A stretch of DNA of 64,000 nt from a virus, in the IMG/VR virus record IMGVR_UViG_3300041411_000085, positions 23,004 through 87,003 of that record, one strand, 5' to 3'. Made by a program: the position numbers and the translations under genes. How positions within the stretch are numbered: position 1 is the first letter of the stretch; the number at the start of each line of letters is the position of its first letter. Shown here piece by piece: positions 5,643-35,046 of the stretch. The notes beneath the pieces were generated by a model that searched no databases, was not told where the DNA came from, and saw nothing but the letters and a program-made list of their open reading frames with translations.

Positions 5643-6749
5643 ATGGAAGAAGAGTGGAAAGAGATACCCGGTTATCCGGGGTATGAAGCTAGCGATAAAG
5701 GTAATGTAAGACAGTTATCTGGTAAACAAGTGTTCCTCCAGATAACAGGTGAGCCTGAATACCACTATGTAAACATTGTAGATGAGTATGGTAACAGAGT
5801 CCTAAGACGTGCTCATGTCATGGTTGCGAAAGCCTTTCTTGAGAATCCATTGAACCTACCAATGGTTGACCATATTGACAGACAGAGGTTTAATAACAAC
5901 CTTGAAAATCTCCGGTGGGTAACTCGTAAAGATAATGCTAGAAATAAAGTTAATACACTCTTTACTGAATATCAAGGAAAACAAAGGGTCTTGGTTGAGC
6001 TTGTAGAGGAAATATTTGAAGATGATTATCTTGCACCATACCAAGCAATCAGGTACAGAGTATCAACTGGTATGGATTTTGATGCTGCCTTGGCATCTTA
6101 TCTGTACCTTCTAGAGCACGGAAGGTGTAAGATTAAAGTGGACTGGAATAACGAAGAAGTATTCCTCACAGTTCTTTGTAAGGACTTGAGTAAAGATTTC
6201 TTTTATGTGAGACAGAGACTTAGAGATGGTTGGTCTATTTGGAATGCTATTTACGATATTCCACACTCCCACAGTTACAGCTTCGAGGTTATTGACTCAA
6301 AAGGTGTTGGCCACTGGTATCAGAATAATGAAATGTTTGAAAAGACACACCCAACTGCAATTGGAATCTGGAAGTCCTTGTTTAGAGAAGGTAAGACATT
6401 AGATGAAATATTAGCATATGATGGTAAAGACTATTTAAGACGAACTGTAGGTAAGCACACAGGAACTTTAAAAGAGCTGTGTAAGCTTTATGGGAAGACA
6501 GAATCCTCAGTAGAAACTAGAGTAGGCAAAGGCATGTCTTTAGAGGATGCTTTAACCTCCCCTCCTGAAAGGATCAAGAAAGTCACTATTGATGGTGTAT
6601 CAGGGAGCCCTAAATATTGGTATGAGCATTACGGGCTTGTTTACAAGACTGTGAAACATAAGAAAGATAGGTTGAAGTGTTCCTTTGAGGATATCTTGAG
6701 ATACTTTGATGTAGATTTAACTGGTAAAGTTATTTCGTACACAGACTAA
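5643..6749 (+). CDS. NUMOD4-HNH homing endonuclease
   Basis: EEWKEIPGYPGYEASDKGNVR (NUMOD4); AHVMVAKAF...VDHIDRQRFNNNLENLRW (HNH); repeated C-terminal helical DNA-binding units. Confidence 0.88.
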   Translation: MEEEWKEIPGYPGYEASDKGNVRQLSGKQVFLQITGEPEYHYVNIVDEYGNRVLRRAHVMVAKAFLENPLNLPMVDHIDRQRFNNNLENLRWVTRKDNARNKVNTLFTEYQGKQRVLVELVEEIFEDDYLAPYQAIRYRVSTGMDFDAALASYLYLLEHGRCKIKVDWNNEEVFLTVLCKDLSKDFFYVRQRLRDGWSIWNAIYDIPHSHSYSFEVIDSKGVGHWYQNNEMFEKTHPTAIGIWKSLFREGKTLDEILAYDGKDYLRRTVGKHTGTLKELCKLYGKTESSVETRVGKGMSLEDALTSPPERIKKVTIDGVSGSPKYWYEHYGLVYKTVKHKKDRLKCSFEDILRYFDVDLTGKVISYTD

Positions 6750-21623: not shown

Positions 21624-21824
21624 TTAGATTTGCTCCACTTCAAACTCTGCAATACCACACAGACAACGGCCGATAGATTTTAAGTATTTCTGAATATCTT
21701 CTAGTGCATTGTCTGCACACCATGAGGATTCAGTCAAATGAAAATCAACCATACTTTCATCAAAATCATCTGGATATTCAATCTCATACTCTACAGTCAT
21801 TTTAATCTTAAATTTATTCATCAA
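21624..21824 (-). CDS. hypothetical protein
   Basis: GGAGAGG RBS. Confidence 0.6.
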   Translation of the reverse strand: MMNKFKIKMTVEYEIEYPDDFDESMVDFHLTESSWCADNALEDIQKYLKSIGRCLCGIAEFEVEQI

Positions 21825-22096
21825 TACCTCTCCTTAACTCTGTAATAAGGCTTCTTAACTTCCTTCACAGGCATAGCATGCCAACTTGTATCTTCTGAAT
21901 ATTCATCAACGATGCAGATATCCGGTGCAATACCACCATACGCATCATCCTTTCCAATATACACAACCTCATGACCATCTGAAATGATCTGGTCAATGAC
22001 GAGTTGTTGTCTAGGGTCCATGTCTCCGATTACTGCGATGATCATTTTATCTCTCCTTTCACGCCAAGATTTTACTTTCTTGGAGCACATTAGCAT
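21821..22096 (-). CDS. hypothetical protein
   Basis: The real start is probably MIIAVIG, after AAGGAGAG. Confidence 0.55.
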   Translation of the reverse strand: MLMCSKKVKSWRERRDKMIIAVIGDMDPRQQLVIDQIISDGHEVVYIGKDDAYGGIAPDICIVDEYSEDTSWHAMPVKEVKKPYYRVKERY

Positions 22097-23378
22097 CCTT
22101 CCAAGACATTTTCAAGGGGATTAATGATGCAATACCAAATTCCTCCCTAAAAGCGTCACCCATAGCATTCTCCAAGAGGCCCACGTCAGACATTCTGACC
22201 ACAAAACTGTCATGGATTGGCAGGATTGGCTTCATTTCATCTACAAATTTCTCAATTACTCGTTGAGCGAGGTACGAATCTGCGTTCTGTAGTGCTAGCC
22301 CAAACGAATCATCCCGGCAATAGCAAGGAATAAAGTCAGGAGTCATACTGTAAATGTGTTCGCGGGCTTTCTTACCAGTGTTTAGGCTCTTATCAATGCT
22401 CCAACCTTGAGATTTAAATTTAGTAATCTCTTTGTTGATTGCACGATCAGCGCTATCTTCAGTTTTGGAGTTAAACAGAATGTTAATAGACAATTTAATC
22501 AGTTCACGATGGTCATCATTCTGTAACCGCTCAGGTAGAATATCCATGTACACGTCAAGCGGTAGGTTCTCCATACTGATCTGTTCCATCAAGCTGGCAA
22601 GCCTGTAGTGAAGATTAGAGAAATCAATTTCCACAACCTGTTCACCATTGATAGTGATATCAAGGCGTGCCTTAGTCTTCTTGTGTTTAATCTTCAAAGC
22701 GTCAGAATGAAAGTAACGCCCACCGTGTTCAAAGTCTTTATTAAAGATACGAGAGTAGATGTTAGTCATAACATTACCTTCGCCATCTTTAATATCATGC
22801 AATTCATTAATACGGTTAAGTTTCTCTACAACCTTACGCGCAGCTTTGATATTCTTATTATCTTGATAGTCAATAGCTTTACCATACTCGTTACGGAGGA
22901 TGATTGTTTGAAGGCTGGCATTGTAAGCAGCAATAGCACTCTGAACCTCTTCATCTTTAGAACAAAATTCAGCAACAAAGGCTTCAGATGGTGTGATGTA
23001 AGACATGATTCTCTTTTCCTTATCTATATGTGCTTTGCCAATGAAATTGTGAATATATCCTATTTCTTCAAGCACTGCAATACATTTCATCAGACGATGG
23101 GCTGTTATTCCCCGTCTGTCATACTTAGTTTTGATTGGTGAGTGGTTGACCTTATCTCTTGAGTATAGAAGATTCTCATTCTTCTTAATGCAAGCAATCA
23201 GATTCATAACCACTACACCACTTAATTCCTTATCTACAATAGCTTCTATATGTCTAAGCTTATTAACTACTGACTTAGATAGATTAATACTGTAGGTAAG
23301 CAATCTACTCCTTGTATTCTTCTCTTCTCCTTCCTCTTCTATCACTATTCTACTCCTTCCTCTTCCTCTTCTGTTCAT
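22059..23378 (-). CDS. compact nucleotide polymerase of the PolA / T7-RNA-polymerase superfamily (TV-Pol-like)
   Basis: HGGRYF; motif A EIDFSNLHYR; motif B RELIKLSINILFN; LQNADS; motif C LPIHDSF; no exonuclease domain. Confidence 0.7.
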   Translation of the reverse strand: MNRRGRGRSRIVIEEEGEEKNTRSRLLTYSINLSKSVVNKLRHIEAIVDKELSGVVVMNLIACIKKNENLLYSRDKVNHSPIKTKYDRRGITAHRLMKCIAVLEEIGYIHNFIGKAHIDKEKRIMSYITPSEAFVAEFCSKDEEVQSAIAAYNASLQTIILRNEYGKAIDYQDNKNIKAARKVVEKLNRINELHDIKDGEGNVMTNIYSRIFNKDFEHGGRYFHSDALKIKHKKTKARLDITINGEQVVEIDFSNLHYRLASLMEQISMENLPLDVYMDILPERLQNDDHRELIKLSINILFNSKTEDSADRAINKEITKFKSQGWSIDKSLNTGKKAREHIYSMTPDFIPCYCRDDSFGLALQNADSYLAQRVIEKFVDEMKPILPIHDSFVVRMSDVGLLENAMGDAFREEFGIASLIPLKMSWKDANVLQESKILA

Positions 23379-23453
23379 ATAAGTAATTTAGTACTACAAA
23401 ACATAGGTTTGAGTCAATGTTTATAGGGGTTTGAGGCTAAATCCCATGTCACC

Positions 23454-23759
23454 CTAATCCTCAATCCCATCATCAAAATGCCTACGAATCAAATACTGTC
23501 GCCACTCTTCAGACACTTCATAATCCTTCTTTGTGTGGTTGTCAAAGAAATACATAGCCCAACCACTGCTACTAATAATCCCACCTTCTTGGATAGGTTT
23601 ACCCCAAGATTCCTCTACATTCAGCACCTCACCTTCAACGTATGTAGATGCAAGATAGCGTGATTTACTAAGGACAACTGAAGAGTATTTCTTTCCTGAG
23701 TGTAAATGTGTAACGTACCAAGCTTTAAGGTTGTTCATTACAAACTCCACAAATAACAA
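23454..23759 (-). CDS. hypothetical protein
   Basis: Likely start at MNNLKAW after GGAG. Confidence 0.6.
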   Translation of the reverse strand: MLFVEFVMNNLKAWYVTHLHSGKKYSSVVLSKSRYLASTYVEGEVLNVEESWGKPIQEGGIISSSGWAMYFFDNHTKKDYEVSEEWRQYLIRRHFDDGIED

Positions 23760-24607: not shown

Positions 24608-24636
24608 AGTATGCCTCCATCACCAACCCCTGTCAA
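24608..24636 (-). promoter_or_regulatory. leftward promoter of a divergent pair
   Basis: TTGACA-17-CATACT. Confidence 0.75.
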
Positions 24637-24733
24637 GCACCTCTTCGAAAAATCTTCTGACAGATGCTAAATAAATTTACCCAAGGGATTTTCCCTGAAT
24701 AGGTCGCCTTAAATAATATTTTTAAATCAGTGC

Positions 24734-24762
24734 TTGACAGGTGTAGGGGTGAGGGGTAGGAT
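24734..24762 (+). promoter_or_regulatory. rightward promoter of a divergent pair
   Basis: TTGACA-17-TAGGAT. Confidence 0.75.
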
Positions 24763-25472: not shown

Positions 25473-25599
25473 CTCCTCACAAACAATGTGACAATATGCG
25501 ATGAGACTGAAGTCTCTACTGACGTAAGATGTAAGCAAATAAATTTGAATACTTATTAATGTAATACTATGCAGCGAAAGATGCTGTGGGAGAGATGGG

Positions 25600-25851
25600 A
25601 TGAGCACAGAGAAATTTAAACAGTTATTGGCTAACCTTGAATTTGTTGTAGGTGGTGAACCTTCTGAATGGTATGCTGAAAGGGAGAAATTGATTGATTA
25701 TGTCGAAGAGCTTGATGTTTGGAGTCGCTTTGCTGGATACCTTCTTGATCATTGTGAAGGTGAAACAATCTACGAAGAAAGTCTTCAGTATTGGTTGAGC
25801 GAGATGCTTAGGAAAGAAAAGGATGCAGCAGCTAAGTTAGATGGAAAATAA
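25600..25851 (+). CDS. hypothetical protein
   Basis: GGGAG RBS. Confidence 0.65.
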   Translation: MSTEKFKQLLANLEFVVGGEPSEWYAEREKLIDYVEELDVWSRFAGYLLDHCEGETIYEESLQYWLSEMLRKEKDAAAKLDGK

Positions 25852-25875
25852 ATTGAATGGTTGGGAGGAGTGATT

Positions 25876-26046
25876 ATGAGCAAGAAATTTGGTAAAAGTG
25901 TTATCGCAGAGCTGCAACGGATTCGTTATGTACTTGACAACATGGAAAACTGTGAGGATGGTGAAGAGATGATCCATATTGCACAAGAGATTTCAGCAGA
26001 TGTTGAGTCTCTGGAACAAGTGGTTGAAGAGAAATTTAAGCTCTGA
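25876..26046 (+). CDS. hypothetical protein
   Basis: GGAGGAG RBS before MSKK. Confidence 0.6.
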   Translation: MSKKFGKSVIAELQRIRYVLDNMENCEDGEEMIHIAQEISADVESLEQVVEEKFKL

Positions 26047-26101
26047 CATCTTGAAGCAATTTGATTAATACTCTTTGCAGGGTGTTGGAGGGGAGAAGAG
26101 C

Positions 26102-27856
26102 GTGAGTAAACAAGAGCGACCGGACGGAGAATTGTTGTACCATGCGTCCTGTATTGGAGATGACTGTTCGTCGTCAGATGGTATGGCTGTGTATCAGAAA
26201 GAAATTGATGGAAAGCATATTAACGATGCCTTCTGTTTCGTTTGCACAAATTATTTCAACCACGACCAACTTGAAGAGGTTGGTATTAAGATTAAAGAGG
26301 GGAAACATAAAGTGTCCGAAGTAGTGGATTTTACAAACATTCAAGCAATTCCATTTCGTGGTTGGAAAGAACGCGGTATTGGTCAACCCGTATCCACAAA
26401 GTATGGCGTGCACACAGAAGTTGAAAACAGCTTTGATGTGACAGCTCGTTATTACCCATCTACATCAGATGGTAAGATCGTAGGCTTTAAGAAACGTTTG
26501 AATCCTAAAGACTTCGTTGGGATTGGTAGCACTAAGGCAACTAATGAACTCTTTGGTCAGTCTGTCTTTGAAGCCGGTCAAAAGTATTTGGTAATCACCA
26601 CGGGAGAGGAAGATGCTTTGGCATTTGCCCAAGCTCTATATTCCAAAAAAGATGGAGTGGAATACTGGACACCGTGTGTTAGTGTGACTTGTGGTGATGG
26701 TAGTATTATCAAACAATTCAAGGCTAACTTTGAATATATCAACAGTTTTTCTAAGGTCATCCTGTCGTTTGATCAAGATGAATCAGCACAGAAATATGTA
26801 GAAGAGGCAGCACGTCTCCTTACTCCGGGTAAGGCGTTCATTGCAAAGCTCCCACAAGGGGTTAAAGATGCCTCGGATATGGTTAAATCTGGTCGTACAG
26901 CAGAGCTTAAACAACTCTTCTGGAAAGCCACTCCGTTCAGTCGGGTTGACGTTCTACACTTGAGTCAAATGTGGGATGACTTTGAAAGTGAAGACAATAA
27001 CGTAAAGATTCCATTTCCTTCATCTTGGGCGCACTTGAATGAAATGATGAATGGGGGTATGGAAAAGGGTGAAATTACAATCATCGGTGCATTGACATCT
27101 ATTGGTAAGAGTTCGATTGTAAACAACGTGGTATATTCGCTGATTGAGAATACACCGTTCAAAGTAGGTGCAATGTATCTGGAAGGCACCAAGCGTGAAG
27201 TTGTGCGTGACCTGTTGTCGCTTGATGCTGGTATGAACCTCCGGACAGTCAATCGTGAGAACGTAGATATTGAAGCTCTGAAGAATCGTTTCTTTGAGAA
27301 CCTTGCGAAGAAAGATCAATTCGTTTATGTTGACCATCAGGGTAGTATCTCAACCGCTGAGATTTTTGATAAACTTAATTATCTGGCGAAGGCTGAGAAC
27401 TGTGATGTAATTGTTATCGATCCTGTTCAAGCGGGTGTAAACAGTAGTGATAACGGTGCAATCATTGAGTTTATGGATACATTGTTGAAGTTCGCAAAGG
27501 AGACAGATACTTGTGTGGTTGCAATTAGTCACATGAGAAAGCCTTCTGAAGAAAACCCACACGCTGTAACCGAATACCAATTAATGGGTTCCAGTTCTTT
27601 AAATCAAATTGCATTCAATACAATTTTGATCAGCCGTGATAAGATGAACCCTTGTCCAATTAAAAAGTCAGCCACTAAGTTGCAATTGGTTAAATGTCGT
27701 CGGACTGGTAACACTGGTGATGCTGGATGGTTGCGATATGATGGAGCCACAACACATATGTTTGCGACATCTGATCCATATATTGAAGAAAGCCTAATGG
27801 ATGAGCCACCATCGGTAGAAACTCTAGAAATTCCAGCACATATGGTTGACTTTTAA
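26102..27856 (+). CDS. DNA primase-helicase (T7 gp4-like)
   Basis: N-terminal Zn finger (C..C...CFVC); TOPRIM motifs (GEEDA, FDQDE, KDASD); SF4 helicase motifs (GALTSIGKS, VIDP, ISH, KCRRTG); GTG start after GGAGG. Confidence 0.93.
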   Translation: MSKQERPDGELLYHASCIGDDCSSSDGMAVYQKEIDGKHINDAFCFVCTNYFNHDQLEEVGIKIKEGKHKVSEVVDFTNIQAIPFRGWKERGIGQPVSTKYGVHTEVENSFDVTARYYPSTSDGKIVGFKKRLNPKDFVGIGSTKATNELFGQSVFEAGQKYLVITTGEEDALAFAQALYSKKDGVEYWTPCVSVTCGDGSIIKQFKANFEYINSFSKVILSFDQDESAQKYVEEAARLLTPGKAFIAKLPQGVKDASDMVKSGRTAELKQLFWKATPFSRVDVLHLSQMWDDFESEDNNVKIPFPSSWAHLNEMMNGGMEKGEITIIGALTSIGKSSIVNNVVYSLIENTPFKVGAMYLEGTKREVVRDLLSLDAGMNLRTVNRENVDIEALKNRFFENLAKKDQFVYVDHQGSISTAEIFDKLNYLAKAENCDVIVIDPVQAGVNSSDNGAIIEFMDTLLKFAKETDTCVVAISHMRKPSEENPHAVTEYQLMGSSSLNQIAFNTILISRDKMNPCPIKKSATKLQLVKCRRTGNTGDAGWLRYDGATTHMFATSDPYIEESLMDEPPSVETLEIPAHMVDF

Positions 27857-27901: not shown

Positions 27902-29614
27902 TTGGAAAAGAAATGGTTCAAAACTGACTTCATTTGGGACTTGGAAACTTTTCCAAACTGTTTTACCGCATGCTTTGTTTATGCTAATGGTCAAGGGATA
28001 CGTGTATTTGAAATCAGTGATCGAAAGGATGAGACTGAGGGGTTATTGGAGTTTTTAAGGAAGGTGAGAGCGGGTAACTATCGATTGGTAGGATTCAACT
28101 CCAATGCATTTGATTACCCTATTCTCCACCACATTCTGACAAAGGCACGTAAAGCCTTTACAGAAGGAAAGAAAGCAAAGTTTACAGCAAAGGAACTGTA
28201 TAAGGTTGCTATGGATCTTATTAATTCCATGAAAGATGAGAAGTTTGGGTCTTCGATTAAGGAGAAGGATGTAATCATCCCTCAAGTTGATCTATTCAAG
28301 GTTCACCACTTTGACAATAAAAATAGGTCAACCTCTCTAAAAATGTTGGAATATAACATGAGGTCAACTAACATTGAGGATTTACCGTTTCCTGTAGGTA
28401 CAGTGTTAACACACGTAGAAAAAGATGTATTAGTAAAATACAACAAACACGATGTCATGGAGACGCTTAAGTTCTATTGGTATTCATACGAAAACTTAAA
28501 ACTGAGGGAAGACTTGACTAAACAGTTTGGTTTTGACTGTACTAATTTCAACGATACGAAGATCGGCAAAGAACTGTTTATTCGAACACTGGAGAAAGAA
28601 AAACCGGGCTGCTGTTACGAGATTACTAAGTTTGGTCGTAAAGTTCGTCAAACCAAACGAGATCAAATTGTAATCAAAGACTGTCTTTTTCCTTACATTA
28701 AATTTGATAGACCAGAGTTTAAAGCTGTACATGAATGGTTCAAAACTCAAGTAATCACTGAAACAAAAGGTGTTTTTAGCGATCTACTGGAGCACCAGTT
28801 GGGTGATGTGGCTAAATATGCTGAGATGGTTGTTAAACGAAAGAAGCTTGGTAACGCTAACGACTGCGCTAAGTATGGATTTGATGACTTCAAAGGAACA
28901 AGAAGTAAAACATTTGTACCTACTGAAAAGCAGTTAAGTGAACTTAAACTATCACAGCCTATGGGTTGGGTTGAGGAGAAAGAACTTAAGAGCCCTAAAG
29001 GAGCTAAAAGCTATTACTGGTGTTGGAACGTAGCAGAAACCCTCAACGTGGTAATTAACGGGTTTCGTTATGACTACGGTGTAGGAGGTATTCACGGGGC
29101 TAAACAAGGGACCATTCGGAGTACGGATAAGAGAAAGATTCGTTCGTTGGACGTAAAATCTTTTTATCCAAACATGGGGATTGCAAATCAGATATACCCT
29201 CAACATCTGGGTACAACGTTTTGCAATGTTAACTCATCGTTGTATGCTGAGCGGGCAAAGACCGCTAAAGGTTCCGCTGGTAATGCTGCATTGAAACTTG
29301 CTTTGAATGGTTCGTACGGGGAAACTAACAACGAGTTTAGCCCACTCTTTGATCCGGCTTACACCATGAGTATTACTATCGGCGGCCAGCTCTCACTTTG
29401 TATGTTGATGGAGAAACTGATTGATCATTGTGATGCACAAATCGTAATGTGTAATACTGACGGATTTGAATATATGATTGATGTAGATAAGATTGGTGTG
29501 GATGACCAATGGGTTAAATGGTGGGAAAAAGAAACTAAGCTTGAAATGGAAGGGTTAAACTATTCGACTATGTTCATACGGGATGTAAATTCTTACTGCG
29601 CCGTGAAGGAGTGA
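27902..29614 (+). CDS. family B DNA polymerase, N-terminal part (3'-5' exonuclease, palm, fingers)
   Basis: ExoI DLET, ExoII FNSNAFD, ExoIII YNKHD; motif A DVKSFYPN, motif B KLALNGSYG, motif C NTDG; ends DVNSYCAVKE*. Confidence 0.9.
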   Translation: MEKKWFKTDFIWDLETFPNCFTACFVYANGQGIRVFEISDRKDETEGLLEFLRKVRAGNYRLVGFNSNAFDYPILHHILTKARKAFTEGKKAKFTAKELYKVAMDLINSMKDEKFGSSIKEKDVIIPQVDLFKVHHFDNKNRSTSLKMLEYNMRSTNIEDLPFPVGTVLTHVEKDVLVKYNKHDVMETLKFYWYSYENLKLREDLTKQFGFDCTNFNDTKIGKELFIRTLEKEKPGCCYEITKFGRKVRQTKRDQIVIKDCLFPYIKFDRPEFKAVHEWFKTQVITETKGVFSDLLEHQLGDVAKYAEMVVKRKKLGNANDCAKYGFDDFKGTRSKTFVPTEKQLSELKLSQPMGWVEEKELKSPKGAKSYYWCWNVAETLNVVINGFRYDYGVGGIHGAKQGTIRSTDKRKIRSLDVKSFYPNMGIANQIYPQHLGTTFCNVNSSLYAERAKTAKGSAGNAALKLALNGSYGETNNEFSPLFDPAYTMSITIGGQLSLCMLMEKLIDHCDAQIVMCNTDGFEYMIDVDKIGVDDQWVKWWEKETKLEMEGLNYSTMFIRDVNSYCAVKE

Positions 29615-29617
29615 TTT

Positions 29618-30277
29618 TTGGATTTAATAGATTTTAAATTTTTAGGATGTGGAGGTATTTATAAGATAACCAACACAATTAATAGCAAGTGTTATATAGG
29701 CCGAACCAAATGTTTTTATAGAAGGTGTTCTGAGTATAGAGGAGCCTACAGAAATAAAAACATAGGAAAAATCAATGAATATATGCTCAACTCTATGTTG
29801 AAGCATGGGATCGAATCTTTCACTTTTCGAATAATTGAGATGTGTGAGTATGAAGACATGTTTGAAAGAGAAAATTTTTGGATGGATTATTTTAATAGTC
29901 ATGACAAATCATTAGGATATAATCTCAGGAAAGATTCTTTGGGTGGTGGTATGGAAACACATCCGAGTACATCTAAGAAGATAACGGAACGACTTAAGAA
30001 AGAATGGTCTGAAGGTACAAGAGATGGTCATTCAGACAAGCTGAAAGCTTCTTGGGAATTCAGAGACAGAGATGCACAAGCCGATCTGATGTCAAAGAAC
30101 TTGACAAAGTGGAAGTATCTGGTATCTTTGGATGGGATCACTGAAGATCTGCTATATAAAGATTTAGCTGAGCTTGGTCTTAAGAACTGCGTCAGTACTT
30201 TCTTCCAAAAGAAGAGTGATGTTGTTCAGTTCAAAGGGTATACTATTGAGAGGATCAGATTGGATGATGTCGCATGA
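29618..30277 (+). CDS. GIY-YIG homing endonuclease inserted in the DNA polymerase gene
   Basis: GIYKITNTINSKCYIG...R...ERENFW...GYN; AAGGAG RBS inside the end of the polymerase ORF. Confidence 0.9.
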   Translation: MDLIDFKFLGCGGIYKITNTINSKCYIGRTKCFYRRCSEYRGAYRNKNIGKINEYMLNSMLKHGIESFTFRIIEMCEYEDMFERENFWMDYFNSHDKSLGYNLRKDSLGGGMETHPSTSKKITERLKKEWSEGTRDGHSDKLKASWEFRDRDAQADLMSKNLTKWKYLVSLDGITEDLLYKDLAELGLKNCVSTFFQKKSDVVQFKGYTIERIRLDDVA

Positions 30278-30761
30278 GGAAGAAGTTTCAGTAATTCAAA
30301 GCCTGATCAAAGACGGTAAGGTCAAGACTAAAGGTGCTTATGAAGTGATGCCTTTTGACAAGATTGGTTGGAATAAAAACCAATCAGCAATGGTTGTACC
30401 AATGGCTGCACTTTATCACCTTTTGGATATGGGTGATTACGAGGATTTTATTCGGTTACATAAAGATAAATATGACTTTCTTTTGAGGACAAAAGTCCCG
30501 AGAAGTAGTAAGCTGTTGCTCGTTACCCAAGATGGTGAAGAAATACAGCTTCAGAACATTTGTCGCTATTATCCCTCGAAAGAAGGTGGTAAACTGATTA
30601 AGGTGATGCCTCCATTGGTTGAAGGTGGTGAGTGGCGACGATTAGGTATTGACACCAGTTGGGATGTGAAACCATGTAACGACATCAAGGACTTTTCTTG
30701 GGATTTGGACTACAGATATTTTGTCCAAGAAGCAAAGGCTTTGATTGATTCTGTAAGCTGA
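30264..30761 (+). CDS. family B DNA polymerase, C-terminal (thumb) part
   Basis: DGKVKTKGAY and a terminal LDYRYFVQEA motif; own RBS GAGAGGA with ATG at 30264/30267 overlapping the endonuclease end. Confidence 0.82.
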   Translation: MMSHEEEVSVIQSLIKDGKVKTKGAYEVMPFDKIGWNKNQSAMVVPMAALYHLLDMGDYEDFIRLHKDKYDFLLRTKVPRSSKLLLVTQDGEEIQLQNICRYYPSKEGGKLIKVMPPLVEGGEWRRLGIDTSWDVKPCNDIKDFSWDLDYRYFVQEAKALIDSVS

Positions 30762-32456: not shown

Positions 32457-33059
32457 ATGAGCCATTTTCAAACGAGAGTGTTAATGAAAAAGAATAAACT
32501 TGTCTGTGGAGTTGGGGTTAATGATCTAGGCAGACCTGTGTATTGGAAAGAAAATGGAAAGTATGTTATCTGCCCAATATACCGAGTTTGGAAAAGTATG
32601 TTGGTCCGTTGTTATGATAAGAATTTCCACCATAAAGTCACATATGCTGAGTCCTATGTAGTACCTGAGTGGCTTCGGCTGAGTAATTTTGAAAAATGGA
32701 TGGAGCAGCAAGATTGGAAAGGTAAAGAATTGGACAAGGACATTCTTTTTCAGGGAAACAAGATTTACGGTCCCGAGACTTGTGTTTTTATTCCTCACGA
32801 CTTGAACGTATTCCTGATAGATAGTGCAGGCGCCCGTGGTGAATACCCTATTGGTGTTTCTTTTCATAAAAACAGTGGTCAATTGCAAGTAGATTGCGGT
32901 AATCCGTTTACACGTAAGAGAGAATATCTAGGTCTTTTTAAGGATGTACAAGAGGCACACTTAACATGGAAAGCAAAGAAACATCAACATGCACTAACTT
33001 ACGCAGAGCAACAAACAGATCCACGAATAGCTGAAGCGCTTCGCACACGCTATCTGTAA
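32457..33059 (+). CDS. putative homing endonuclease (HNH-like with an AP2-like tail)
   Basis: GVGVND...YRVWKSMLVRCY...W..LSNF..W...LDKDIL..GNKIYGPETCVF...YLGLF; the start may be MKKNK. Confidence 0.75.
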   Translation: MSHFQTRVLMKKNKLVCGVGVNDLGRPVYWKENGKYVICPIYRVWKSMLVRCYDKNFHHKVTYAESYVVPEWLRLSNFEKWMEQQDWKGKELDKDILFQGNKIYGPETCVFIPHDLNVFLIDSAGARGEYPIGVSFHKNSGQLQVDCGNPFTRKREYLGLFKDVQEAHLTWKAKKHQHALTYAEQQTDPRIAEALRTRYL

Positions 33060-33520: not shown

Positions 33521-34465
33521 ATGAGCCTCGTTGTGATTGATGGAGATTTGATCAGCTACAAAGCCTCGGCAGCAAGTGAAACACGAACTATCTTAGTTAC
33601 AAACAATTCAAGTAAAGCAAAGAAAGAGTTTGCTAATCGGACAGAGTTTAAAGCTTGGTTAAAAGAGTCTGAGAAGAACATTGAAGATTATTCAATTACA
33701 GATGTGCAAACTCCTGAGCCTTTAGAGAATTGTTTACACACTGTTAAAATGATTCTACAAGGTATTCACGAAGCATCGGGCTGTGATGAAATGAAAGTGG
33801 TGGTTCAGGGAGAGGGTAATTTCCGTGACAGCTTACTACTTCCGACTAAATATAAGTCTAACCGTACAGACACACAGAAACCTATTCATTTGTCCGAGGC
33901 AAGAGGCTATTTGTTGGGGAAATACAAGGCTGAAGAGGCGAATGGTTGGGAAACTGATGACGTACTAGCCCAATATGCTTACAAAGGTTTTACTACCAAA
34001 AAACGCATTGTACAAGCCACAATCGACAAAGACGCGAATCAGTGCGCCGGTTGGTTATTCAACTGGGATAAGATGCAGAAGCCTCAATTCATTTCAGGAT
34101 TAGGTAACTTCGATAAAGAGGGTAAAGGATTTGGTCGTAAGTTTCTCTACTATCAAATTGTTGTTGGTGATCCTTCTGACTGCTACAAACCTACAGAACT
34201 TGTAAAGGCTAAGTATGGTGCAGCGTCAGCATTCAAAGACTTTGGTGAACTTACCACTGACAAAGAATGTTGGGCTAAGATGAAAGAGCTTTATCAAACT
34301 TGGTATCCTGAAGAGTTTGTGTACACAGCTTGGAATGGTGAGGAAGTGAATGGTAGTTGGTTACAGATGATGCAACTTTACGCTGACTGTGCGCATATGA
34401 AACGGTTTGTTGGTGATAGACTGGATGTGAGTACAACACTTGATAAGATGGGGTTGATTGAATGA
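33521..34465 (+). CDS. 5'-3' exonuclease (T7 gp6 / FEN-like)
   Basis: IDGD, NFR, YKSNR, ETDD, DKD and GDPSD motifs. Confidence 0.85.
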   Translation: MSLVVIDGDLISYKASAASETRTILVTNNSSKAKKEFANRTEFKAWLKESEKNIEDYSITDVQTPEPLENCLHTVKMILQGIHEASGCDEMKVVVQGEGNFRDSLLLPTKYKSNRTDTQKPIHLSEARGYLLGKYKAEEANGWETDDVLAQYAYKGFTTKKRIVQATIDKDANQCAGWLFNWDKMQKPQFISGLGNFDKEGKGFGRKFLYYQIVVGDPSDCYKPTELVKAKYGAASAFKDFGELTTDKECWAKMKELYQTWYPEEFVYTAWNGEEVNGSWLQMMQLYADCAHMKRFVGDRLDVSTTLDKMGLIE

Positions 34466-35046
34466 CTGTCCCATCACAAGCAGACATTGCTAAACGTAAG
34501 GCTAACCTTGAAAAGTTCTTAAAAGAAATTGATCCCTTGACAGGTAAAGCAATTGAGTCTAAGATGGTAGGTGTAGTTCGTTCTGCAATTCGTAAGAGTT
34601 GGATGAGAAGTCCTACTAAGTTAGCTTTCCTCTATATGAATACCGTCCCAGACATGGACGACACAACACGCACTAAATGGAAGATTCAGTGTCAATGCTG
34701 TAAGAAATGGTTTAAGATAGATCAGGTAGAATGTGACCATATATCCGGCCACAATACATTCACTAAGTCTTCTGACTTCCAATCTTACTTTGATAGTATC
34801 TTGATGGTTGGGTTTGATGGATTGCAAATCCTGTGTTCTGCTGATTGCCATCCGTGCAAAACCCTTTCTGAGAAGTTGGGTATTACCTTTGACGAAGCTG
34901 TTGTGGAACGTGAAGTGATTAAGATTTGTAAACTAAAAGCTGCACAGATTGATAAATGGCTTAGTGATCGAGGAGTTAAGGTTGCTAAAAATCCACAGGC
35001 ACGAAGGGATGCTGTAAGGGAGGCATTGAAGAATGAGCACAAATGA
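34462..35046 (+). CDS. HNH-type endonuclease
   Basis: CQCC...VECDHI...LQILC..CH..KT. Confidence 0.7.
   Translation: MTVPSQADIAKRKANLEKFLKEIDPLTGKAIESKMVGVVRSAIRKSWMRSPTKLAFLYMNTVPDMDDTTRTKWKIQCQCCKKWFKIDQVECDHISGHNTFTKSSDFQSYFDSILMVGFDGLQILCSADCHPCKTLSEKLGITFDEAVVEREVIKICKLKAAQIDKWLSDRGVKVAKNPQARRDAVREALKNEHK

Follow-up and report, generated by a model that had tools for sequence, protein, structure and literature searches.

A half-size polymerase of the divPolA2 family in a phage with a T7-like replication module, and its candidate role in starting replication

We analysed a 64,000-nucleotide stretch of viral DNA (the window), which comprises bases 23,004-87,003 of the 87,003-bp virus record IMGVR_UViG_3300041411_000085, a record rated 99% complete. 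The minus strand of the window carries a gene, here called p1, for a miniature polymerase with a palm and fingers of the PolA/T7-RNAP type, and a second gene of the same kind, p2, lies elsewhere in the genome. Judged by profile matches and motifs, p1 is a member of divPolA2, a family named by Yutin et al. in 2024 (Virol J 21:200, PMC11348598) with protein AUR84708 of Vibrio phage 1.063.O as its prototype; the function given for the family in the passages devoted to it is a guess, namely repair or RNA polymerase activity. Positions below are those of the window unless marked as genome positions.

A compact polymerase with a conserved active site

The open reading frame (ORF) of p1 spans 22059..23378 (-) and encodes 439 amino acids counted from its first ATG; the size first estimated from the letters (about 440 residues, roughly half of T7 RNAP) holds. 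The start favoured by gene callers and by the sequence is instead a GTG at 23345, 11 codons inside the ORF, which shortens the protein to 428 residues. A ribosome-binding site, GGAAGGAG, lies 5′ of this GTG while the first ATG has none, and the protein as deposited in the database (P0001, 428 aa) likewise begins at the GTG. We place p1 at 22059..23345 (-), with the stop codon at 22059-22061, on the combined evidence of the ORF, P0001, the ribosome-binding site, a match to phrog_4756 and the family profile, and we number residues throughout as in P0001. All five motifs named in the original prediction (HGGRYF, EIDFSNLHYR, RELIKLSINILFN, LQNADS and LPIHDSF) are present in the ORF, in that order. 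A megablast search with the 4 kb around p1 matched no phage record.

An AlphaFold2 model built from 25 relatives is confident (mean pLDDT 88.8, pTM 0.80). Foldseek against the PDB returned 77 chains at E <= 0.001, and the rows listed are family A DNA polymerases. In an exhaustive structure search with VIA-align, residues ~143-425 aligned to polymerase chains, among them apicoplast Pol (apPol, Z 14.8), Pol nu (Z 14.1), Klenow (Z 13.4), yeast mitochondrial RNAP (Z 13.2), T7 DNAP (Z 12.5) and T7 RNAP (Z 11.8), with N4 RNAPII reaching only Z 7.8. The core, modelled at residues ~146-428 (22062..22910, -), is a palm with fingers of the PolA/T7-RNAP type by both VIA-align and Foldseek, which bears out the proposed miniature fold. 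The absence of an exonuclease domain, also proposed, is borne out as well: residues 143-425 of 428 hold the whole polymerase match, and the remainder is an N-terminal domain. Z scores are high for both DNA and RNA polymerases, so the structure alone is compatible with either product.

Within the core, a beta-hairpin (RIFN..F..GGRYF, residues 199-212, 22710..22751, -) is modelled as strands 198-202 and 209-212 and carries R210. Motif A (VVEIDFSNLH, residues 235-246, 22608..22643, -) forms strand 235-242, which D241 closes, followed by helix 245-253, with H246 five residues after the aspartate (D+5). Motif B (RELIKLSINILFN, residues 280-292, 22470..22508, -) lies in a model helix of residues 277-292 and contributes R280, K284 and N292, and the motif C hairpin (LPIHDSF, residues 375-381, 22203..22223, -) is modelled as strands 375-377 and 380-384, with H378-D379 in the turn of the hairpin 375-384. 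The positions of D241 and H378-D379 are, judged without superposition, those that we take to be expected for the palm aspartates. The original prediction hinged on such a palm with conserved aspartates; the palm is present in the model, and D241 and D379, on the expected strand and hairpin, are invariant.

We counted conservation over 100 diverse family representatives. Eight residues are invariant (N177, R210, R227, E239, D241, K284, H378 and D379), and at least 90% of the representatives also keep R199, F201, G208, G209, Y212, H246, D264 and Y266 as well as R280, N292, G349, D356, S357, S380 and F381. Chance does not account for the motifs. The two-metal active site is intact, and the enzyme is apparently active. 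Only one residue of the N-terminal domain, L92, reaches 90%, as would be expected if this domain sets specificity.

The N-terminal domain (residues ~20-145, 22911..23288, -) is separated from the palm in the model by helices 131-144 and 164-182, which could represent a reduced thumb. Within the whole model, residues 20-146 align to winged-helix chains of the MarR/HxlR/PadR type at Z 5.5-6.6. Modelled alone (pLDDT 78.7), the domain gives a best Z of 6.9, and nearly all of its top 50 matches are winged-helix, none at Z >= 8; Foldseek returned nothing for it at E <= 0.001. The Pfam model HTH_34 scores E 0.053 in p1, under the cut-off, and 2.1e-4 in one of the 100 relatives. Together these matches give moderate support to a winged-helix-like domain.

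Several features bear on whether the product is DNA or RNA. Family A DNA polymerases typically have Glu, the steric gate, at D+5 of motif A, T7 RNAP has Gly there, and both have a Tyr in motif B; at least 90% of divPolA2 relatives have His at D+5, with no Glu, and at least 90% have Asn (N292) at the position of the usual Tyr, an equivalence by motif spacing only. These equivalences rest on spacing because hhalign of the 100-member alignment against the single T7 RNAP and T7 DNAP sequences gave no match (T7 RNAP probability 0.5%). The HDSF motif C and the GGRFY hairpin resemble T7 RNAP more than they do Pol I. Across the 100 members the only polymerase match in Pfam is RNA_pol, in one member (E 2.3e-4), with DNA_pol_A in none of 100. 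For p1 itself, Pfam gave neither RNA_pol (PF00940) at E <= 10 nor DNA_pol_A (PF00476), and phrog_414 (‘RNA polymerase’) matched weakly (E 0.02) at residues 366-410 of the 439-aa ORF. Motif C, the hairpin, the Pfam RNA_pol match, phrog_414 and the D+5 His lean towards RNA rather than DNA synthesis.

The divPolA2 family and its relation to known polymerases

p1 matches phrog_4756 (‘unknown function’) at E 1.2e-54. Pfam, NCBIfam and PADLOC hold no family model for it, and a PDB sequence search gave no phmmer match and only chance-level profile rows (E 0.064-0.64). The family profile A1 matches the prototype AUR84708.1 (MG592441 25,469-26,761) over 25493-26641 at E 1.5e-32. A profile search of 1.84 billion representatives found 11,301 with E <= 0.001, of which 5,579 reach E <= 1e-30, and the best 150 of the 11,301 are nearly all full-length, at 386-662 aa. 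By tblastn, P0001 matched 186 places in 162 phage records, and Rheinheimera phages account for 115 of these records; among the 40 rows listed, one record has no annotation and the others read ‘hypothetical protein’ or ‘conserved hypothetical protein’. Family members also occur in alphaproteobacterial contigs (Rhodobacteraceae, SAR116; loci L006-L020). At one of these loci (L011), the member is accompanied by an HNH gene and by a fragment of the integrase-associated DUF6538 about 4.5 kb away, content that suggests prophage or island contexts. Three divPolA2 genes (L049 and L053, Vibrio phage vB_CoeS_P1; L046, Vibrio phage 277E43-1) have just upstream a small conserved ORF of about 47 residues, MR(L/I)(F/Y)(I/V)Y...PTK(Y/L)IN..L, which abuts or overlaps their start and by eye looks like a ribbon-helix-helix-type partner.

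According to the divPolA2 passages of Yutin et al. (section 13; PMC11348598), the family occurs in 110 barbaviruses and in other phages, as one to three paralogues per genome, with neighbours that vary, and beside a regular PolB, and its members have an active palm, no homologous thumb, no exonuclease and a globular domain at the N terminus for which no similarity could be detected. The present phage resembles the published carriers in size, in its regular PolB, in falling within the range of one to three paralogues and in the variable neighbourhood; p1 shares the active-looking palm, the lack of an exonuclease and the N-terminal globular domain, and the published structural matches, DNA polymerases together with mitochondrial and N4 RNA polymerases, are those found for p1. 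The same passages contain no mention of bacterial members, of Vibrio phage ICP1, of upstream motifs or of a position at divergence points. In the literature, the term divPolA2 turned up only in that paper and its preprint, and searches on A-family primases with winged helices or on compact single-subunit RNAPs returned nothing on the family.

The original prediction had likened p1 to the TV-Pol family of predicted primase-polymerases of viruses and mobile elements (Iyer, Abhiman and Aravind 2008, Biol Direct 3:39, PMC2579912). p1 resembles these proteins in its minimal PolA/T7-RNAP-like core (400-600 aa in TV-Pols) and carries all four of their hallmarks: the hairpin arginine (R210, invariant), the two aspartates (D241 and D379, invariant), which in TV-Pols lie in an RRM-like palm, and R280xxxK284 in the fingers; some TV-Pols also have an extra N-terminal domain. 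The TV-PolN domain is predicted to be all-helical (PMC2579912), in contrast to the winged-helix-like domain of p1, and TV-Pols have a two-helix thumb and partners of the D5-helicase or recombinase type. No D5-like helicase, resolvase, integrase or transposase was found beside p1 or p2, where the neighbours have no PHROG match; this includes the ORFs downstream of the two paralogues (21821-22096 and genome 10653-10841). Such neighbours would in any case support a TV-Pol assignment rather than define it. Microcystis phage Ma-LMM01, which carries a named TV-Pol member, gave no match to profile A1 (a first-look filter yielded no candidates), and no Microcystis record stands among the matches listed for tblastn with P0001 and P0035. 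The published name that fits p1 is divPolA2 rather than TV-Pol, homology to named TV-Pols having been probed with Ma-LMM01 only.

CcPol-MP, the primase of the mobile element SCCmec (Bebel et al. 2020, eLife 9:e55478, PMC7581432), is like p1 a small A-family enzyme that lacks proofreading, and it proves that an A-family fold can start chains. CcPol differs in depending on a separate OB-fold partner, where p1 has a fused winged-helix-like domain, and in using dNTPs; by its authors' account it also keeps the residues that discriminate against ribonucleotides, where p1 has His rather than Glu at D+5 of motif A. The same authors trace CcPol to a Pol I origin, together with a part of the exonuclease domain (PMC7581432), and related PolA-SSB primases have been reported (bioRxiv 10.1101/2022.12.02.518924).

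p1 and T7 RNAP share their fold. The motif C of T7 RNAP is HDSF, and T7-like RNAPs are further marked by an N-terminal promoter-binding domain, a specificity loop and the motif B Tyr. At half the size, p1 appears to have none of these three (the Tyr judged by spacing), and 428 residues leave no room for the T7 N-terminal domain. As summarised in 10.1101/639039, T7 RNAP starts leading-strand synthesis at the primary origin for the gp4/gp5/gp2.5 replisome, which resembles the replisome of the present phage.

Paralogues, promoters and replication genes in the genome

The family profile also found p2, at genome 10,838-12,199 (-) (locus L003 1498-2859), outside the window. Its product of 453 aa shares 24% identity with p1, matches phrog_4756 (E 1.1e-81) and keeps GGRLY, ELDYSSIH, RQLAK...N and YHDS. 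p2 is the first gene of a leftward arm that leads into terminase and portal, with a TTGACAGG promoter-like site about 175 nt upstream. The claim that p1 is a second polymerase thus stands insofar as p1 is separate from the replicative polymerase; it is not the sole such gene.

The raw cumulative GC-skew minimum falls at genome 12,522, 323 nt from the start of p2, and the detrended minimum at genome 47,732 (window 24,729), separated from the start of p1 by 1.38 kb that hold four small ORFs. On the ORF map both minima are points of divergent transcription, and one paralogue lies on the leftward arm of each. Skew position alone does not prove an origin, since skew here follows the coding strand. 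Deposited annotation places the divPolA2 gene 1.3-2.0 kb from a divergent point in ICP1, 1.063.O and 1.121.O, and such points also hold p1, p2, the p1 of G002, the p1 of G003 and, by naive ORF calls, 3 of 3 sister p2 genes; the p1 of G001 and of G004 gave no clear call. This tally does not establish divergence points as the general location of the family.

Sister genomes carry one or two copies. p1 is 80-83% identical among sisters at the DNA level, where homology begins about 35 nt before p1 and stops at the gene end, with flanks that are mostly unrelated. The p2 locus shows allele turnover: its alleles are only 22-46% identical among phages whose p1 is 86-97% identical (loci L035, L036 and L037 versus L003), yet its upstream flank is shared with one sister.

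A tblastn search with a bacterial family member led to Vibrio phage ICP1, whose ORF100 (ICP1_2006_E, MH310934 58,951-60,618; locus L054 3020-4687), a ‘hypothetical protein’ of 555 aa, is matched by the family profile with E 3.7e-41. The Asp of motif A, His at D+5, the R...K...N pattern and HD are all kept in it, and it has an N-terminal extension of about 150 aa. In the passages on replication, Barth et al. report for ICP1 an 8-min read peak ‘near the 60kb position’, which they read as a bidirectional theta origin, and the position of ORF100 coincides, at low resolution, with this early peak. A literature search for ICP1 gp100 found no paper on it; the one text that came up deals with phiCbK genomics.

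An exact-word search of the window and genome 1-20,000 identified a 15-mer, CAAACCCCTATAAAC, at 23419..23433 (-), 73 nt upstream of the p1 start. The shared word, CAAACCCYTATAAAC, occurs there in exactly two copies, both on the genes' strand, the second 79 nt upstream of p2 (genome 12279-12293); genome 20001-23003 lay outside the search. The p1/p2 upstream match of 14/15 exceeds all 200 shuffles (largest 13). In G003, the p2 upstream region shares by eye 20/23 positions with a GGGAT-N4-CTACAGGCCACGTATTC element, and its 15-nt window scores 13/15, a value reached by one of 200 shuffles of another pair; the within-genome pairs of G002 and G001 are at background level. The 15-mer is a real local feature of this genome and a candidate operator, initiation site or shared regulator site; it generalises poorly. 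Apart from the inverted repeat described below, no iterons or strong palindromes were found beside p1 or p2, and RNA structure in their 5′ leaders is not unusual (z 0.90 and -1.84).

The genome has a family of host-type promoters whose -35 is extended, (G/T)G(C/T)TTGACAGG, at 24608-24762 and eight other places; TTGACAGG itself has 10 exact copies, mostly in the early and middle regions. A divergent early promoter region, into which the detrended skew minimum falls, lies 1.3 kb upstream of p1 at 24608..24762 (minus strand, TTGACA-17-CATACT; plus strand, TTGACA-17-TAGGAT; each 10/12). Two of the TTGACAGG copies there face away from each other and make up the arms of an inverted repeat of 29 nt. 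Closer to p1, a candidate sigma-70-type promoter, TTGACT-18 nt-TACTAA, was read by eye at 23388..23417 (-); its weak -10 kept it off the list of the consensus scan, and its TTGAC is kept in all seven aligned relatives. Going by these promoter-like sites, p1 appears to be made early from host-type promoters. A repeat of the T7 promoter type was not seen: the 87 kb hold no exact 12-mer that occurs at least five times, nor any 13- or 14-mer that occurs at least four times. We also considered the T4-late-like word TATAAATA, with sites in the region 23560-23620 and at genome 7487, 83640 and 86933 (-), three of them before late genes. Its nine copies, three of which lie in late intergenic gaps, are about what chance gives by our own composition estimate, and we rejected it as evidence.

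By PHROG and Pfam, the phage carries a T7-like replication module consisting of a primase-helicase, a DNA polymerase, a gp2.5-like single-stranded DNA-binding protein (SSB) and an exonuclease. The Toprim_2 + DnaB_C primase-helicase lies at 26075-27856. The polymerase (phrog_1252) is split into a first piece at 27902-29614 (+), covering profile positions 52-508 and matching Pfam DNA_pol_B_exo2 at E 9.7e-6, and a second at 30174-30761 (+), covering profile positions 508-650, with a GIY-YIG homing endonuclease gene between them at 29618-30277 (+). The predicted coexistence of the miniature enzyme with a PolB and a TOPRIM primase is therefore confirmed, both being encoded separately from p1, and p1 is not the replicative polymerase. 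PHROG and Pfam scans, which covered the larger ORFs only, named no RNA polymerase. A whole-genome search for DNA_pol_A (PF00476) found none, with its control matched in 10 of 14 genomes; the corresponding search for PF00940 was uninformative, its control having matched in 0 of 14.

The genome is rich in homing endonucleases, with at least seven HNH/GIY-YIG genes in 87 kb, some of them beside terminase and portal; besides the gene within the polymerase, they lie at window 5643-6749, 32457-33059 and 34462-35046 and at genome 1304-2083, 5093-5980 and 15983-16714.

Candidate roles

Three roles had been proposed for p1: a minimal RNA polymerase, an origin-priming enzyme or an anti-defence nucleotidyltransferase. 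Among these the evidence leans to origin priming, and our best explanation, held tentatively and with somewhat less than even confidence, is that p1 works as a site-directed polymerase that initiates synthesis for a T7-like replisome in which no RNA polymerase is recognised. The N-terminal domain would bring the enzyme to a particular stretch of DNA close to its own gene, at a point of divergent transcription, where a core of low processivity would lay down a short chain, probably of RNA. The T7-like replisome (primase-helicase, split PolB and gp2.5-like SSB) would extend this chain into bidirectional replication. This would be the same job as that of T7 RNA polymerase at the T7 origin, and the phage would have two such enzymes, one per divergence point. 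What the analysis shows is the fold, the conserved active site, family membership, the two paralogues with their positions and the shared 15-mer; DNA targeting by the N-terminal domain, RNA rather than DNA synthesis and any role in replication initiation are inferences.

A wider version of this proposal, possible but more doubtful, would make divPolA2 the missing initiator in phages that have a T7-like replisome and no recognised RNAP. The enzyme, guided by its winged helix, would lay the first leading-strand primer at an origin beside its own gene, and gene and site together would form a portable origin module that is swapped between phages. ICP1 ORF100 would then be the initiator of the early theta origin, and the present phage would fire from two origins.

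A number of observations weigh against initiation at chosen sites. The phage already carries a TOPRIM primase, and one complete sister genome has a single paralogue and no p2, which makes the second paralogue dispensable. The two paralogues share the same 15-mer at only 24% identity, a poor fit to one protein, one site. Sisters with p1 86-89% identical carry GGGAT-N4-CTACAGGCCACGTATTC at that place instead, and in four distant isolates none of eight within-genome pairs shares an upstream 15-mer above the between-genome background. The skew minima may merely mark switches of transcription, so that the origins here are candidates only, and five of ten paralogues in the four distant isolates have only same-strand ORFs upstream (1.1-1.5 kb, by naive ORF calls). 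The ICP1 peak is of low resolution, and a CRISPR-Cas deletion in the phage used could shift its coordinates by some kilobases. On the protein side, the winged-helix assignment rests on Z < 8, the motif equivalences come from spacing rather than superposition, and the preference for NTPs or dNTPs is predicted only.

An alternative that we regard as unlikely, and that was among the roles raised in the divPolA2 passages of Yutin et al. (PMC11348598), is a small single-subunit RNA polymerase for middle or late phage genes, with the N-terminal domain as promoter reader. Several features speak for it: the T7-RNAP-like HDSF motif C and the GGRFY hairpin, the structural matches to the mitochondrial and T7 RNAPs (Z 13.2 and 11.8), the RNA_pol match in one of 100 members and the weak phrog_414 match. 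The family also lies near an Atlas cluster auto-named ‘DNA-directed RNA polymerase family protein’, and no late promoter or sigma-like factor was recognised in the genome. Such an enzyme would be expected to read a set of promoters, but the 87 kb hold no promoter-like repeat set, the 15-mer stands only before the enzyme's own two genes in the sequence searched, and host-type TTGACAGG promoters are spread across the early and middle regions. Moreover, the lack of a canonical thumb noted in those passages (PMC11348598) points to short products, and a copy number of one or two among sisters, together with swapped p2 alleles, would be odd for an essential transcriptase.

It is improbable, in our view, that p1 serves as an accessory DNA polymerase in repair, in the filling of gaps or in lesion bypass. 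For this reading, family A DNA polymerases are the best matches by structure, repair is the other function suggested in the same passages (PMC11348598), and CcPol, likewise a small A-family enzyme, prefers dNTPs according to the parts of its description that bear on substrates (PMC7581432). Yet at least 90% of relatives have His and Asn in place of the D+5 Glu and the motif B Tyr that are typical of family A, and Pfam DNA_pol_A matches none of 100 members. The predicted N-terminal domain is of a DNA-binding type, no clamp or nuclease partner was seen, and neither the early promoter-like sites nor the position at divergence points is what repair predicts.

Equally improbable is a conflict or selfish module, a polymerase cassette passed from phage to phage for counter-defence, to exclude rival phages or for its own spread: the mostly unrelated flanks of a gene 80-83% identical at the DNA level, the divergent p2 alleles and the sister that has no p2, the alphaproteobacterial relatives beside HNH and integrase-type fragments and the many homing endonucleases would suit it, but PADLOC matched none of five proteins (no defence or anti-defence signal), p1 is well kept across sisters, the active site does not vary although the family is very large, and in the loci examined no recombinase or nuclease is fused to it or consistently adjacent.

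In the texts consulted (figures and supplements aside) we found neither the winged-helix-like reading of the N-terminal domain, the paralogues at two skew minima, the local 15-mer, the turnover of p2 alleles, the size of the family, its bacterial members nor a link between ICP1 ORF100 and the origin peak. How replication starts in a phage that has a T7-type replisome and no phage RNA polymerase is a question that Barth et al. raise for ICP1 in the passages cited above. divPolA2 is a very large family of half-size polymerases that lacks a Pfam or NCBIfam model and has a member in the genetically tractable ICP1. If its enzymes do start chains at chosen sites, they would represent a third priming route besides the DnaG and AEP primases, and a compact, programmable polymerase of this kind would be of practical interest.

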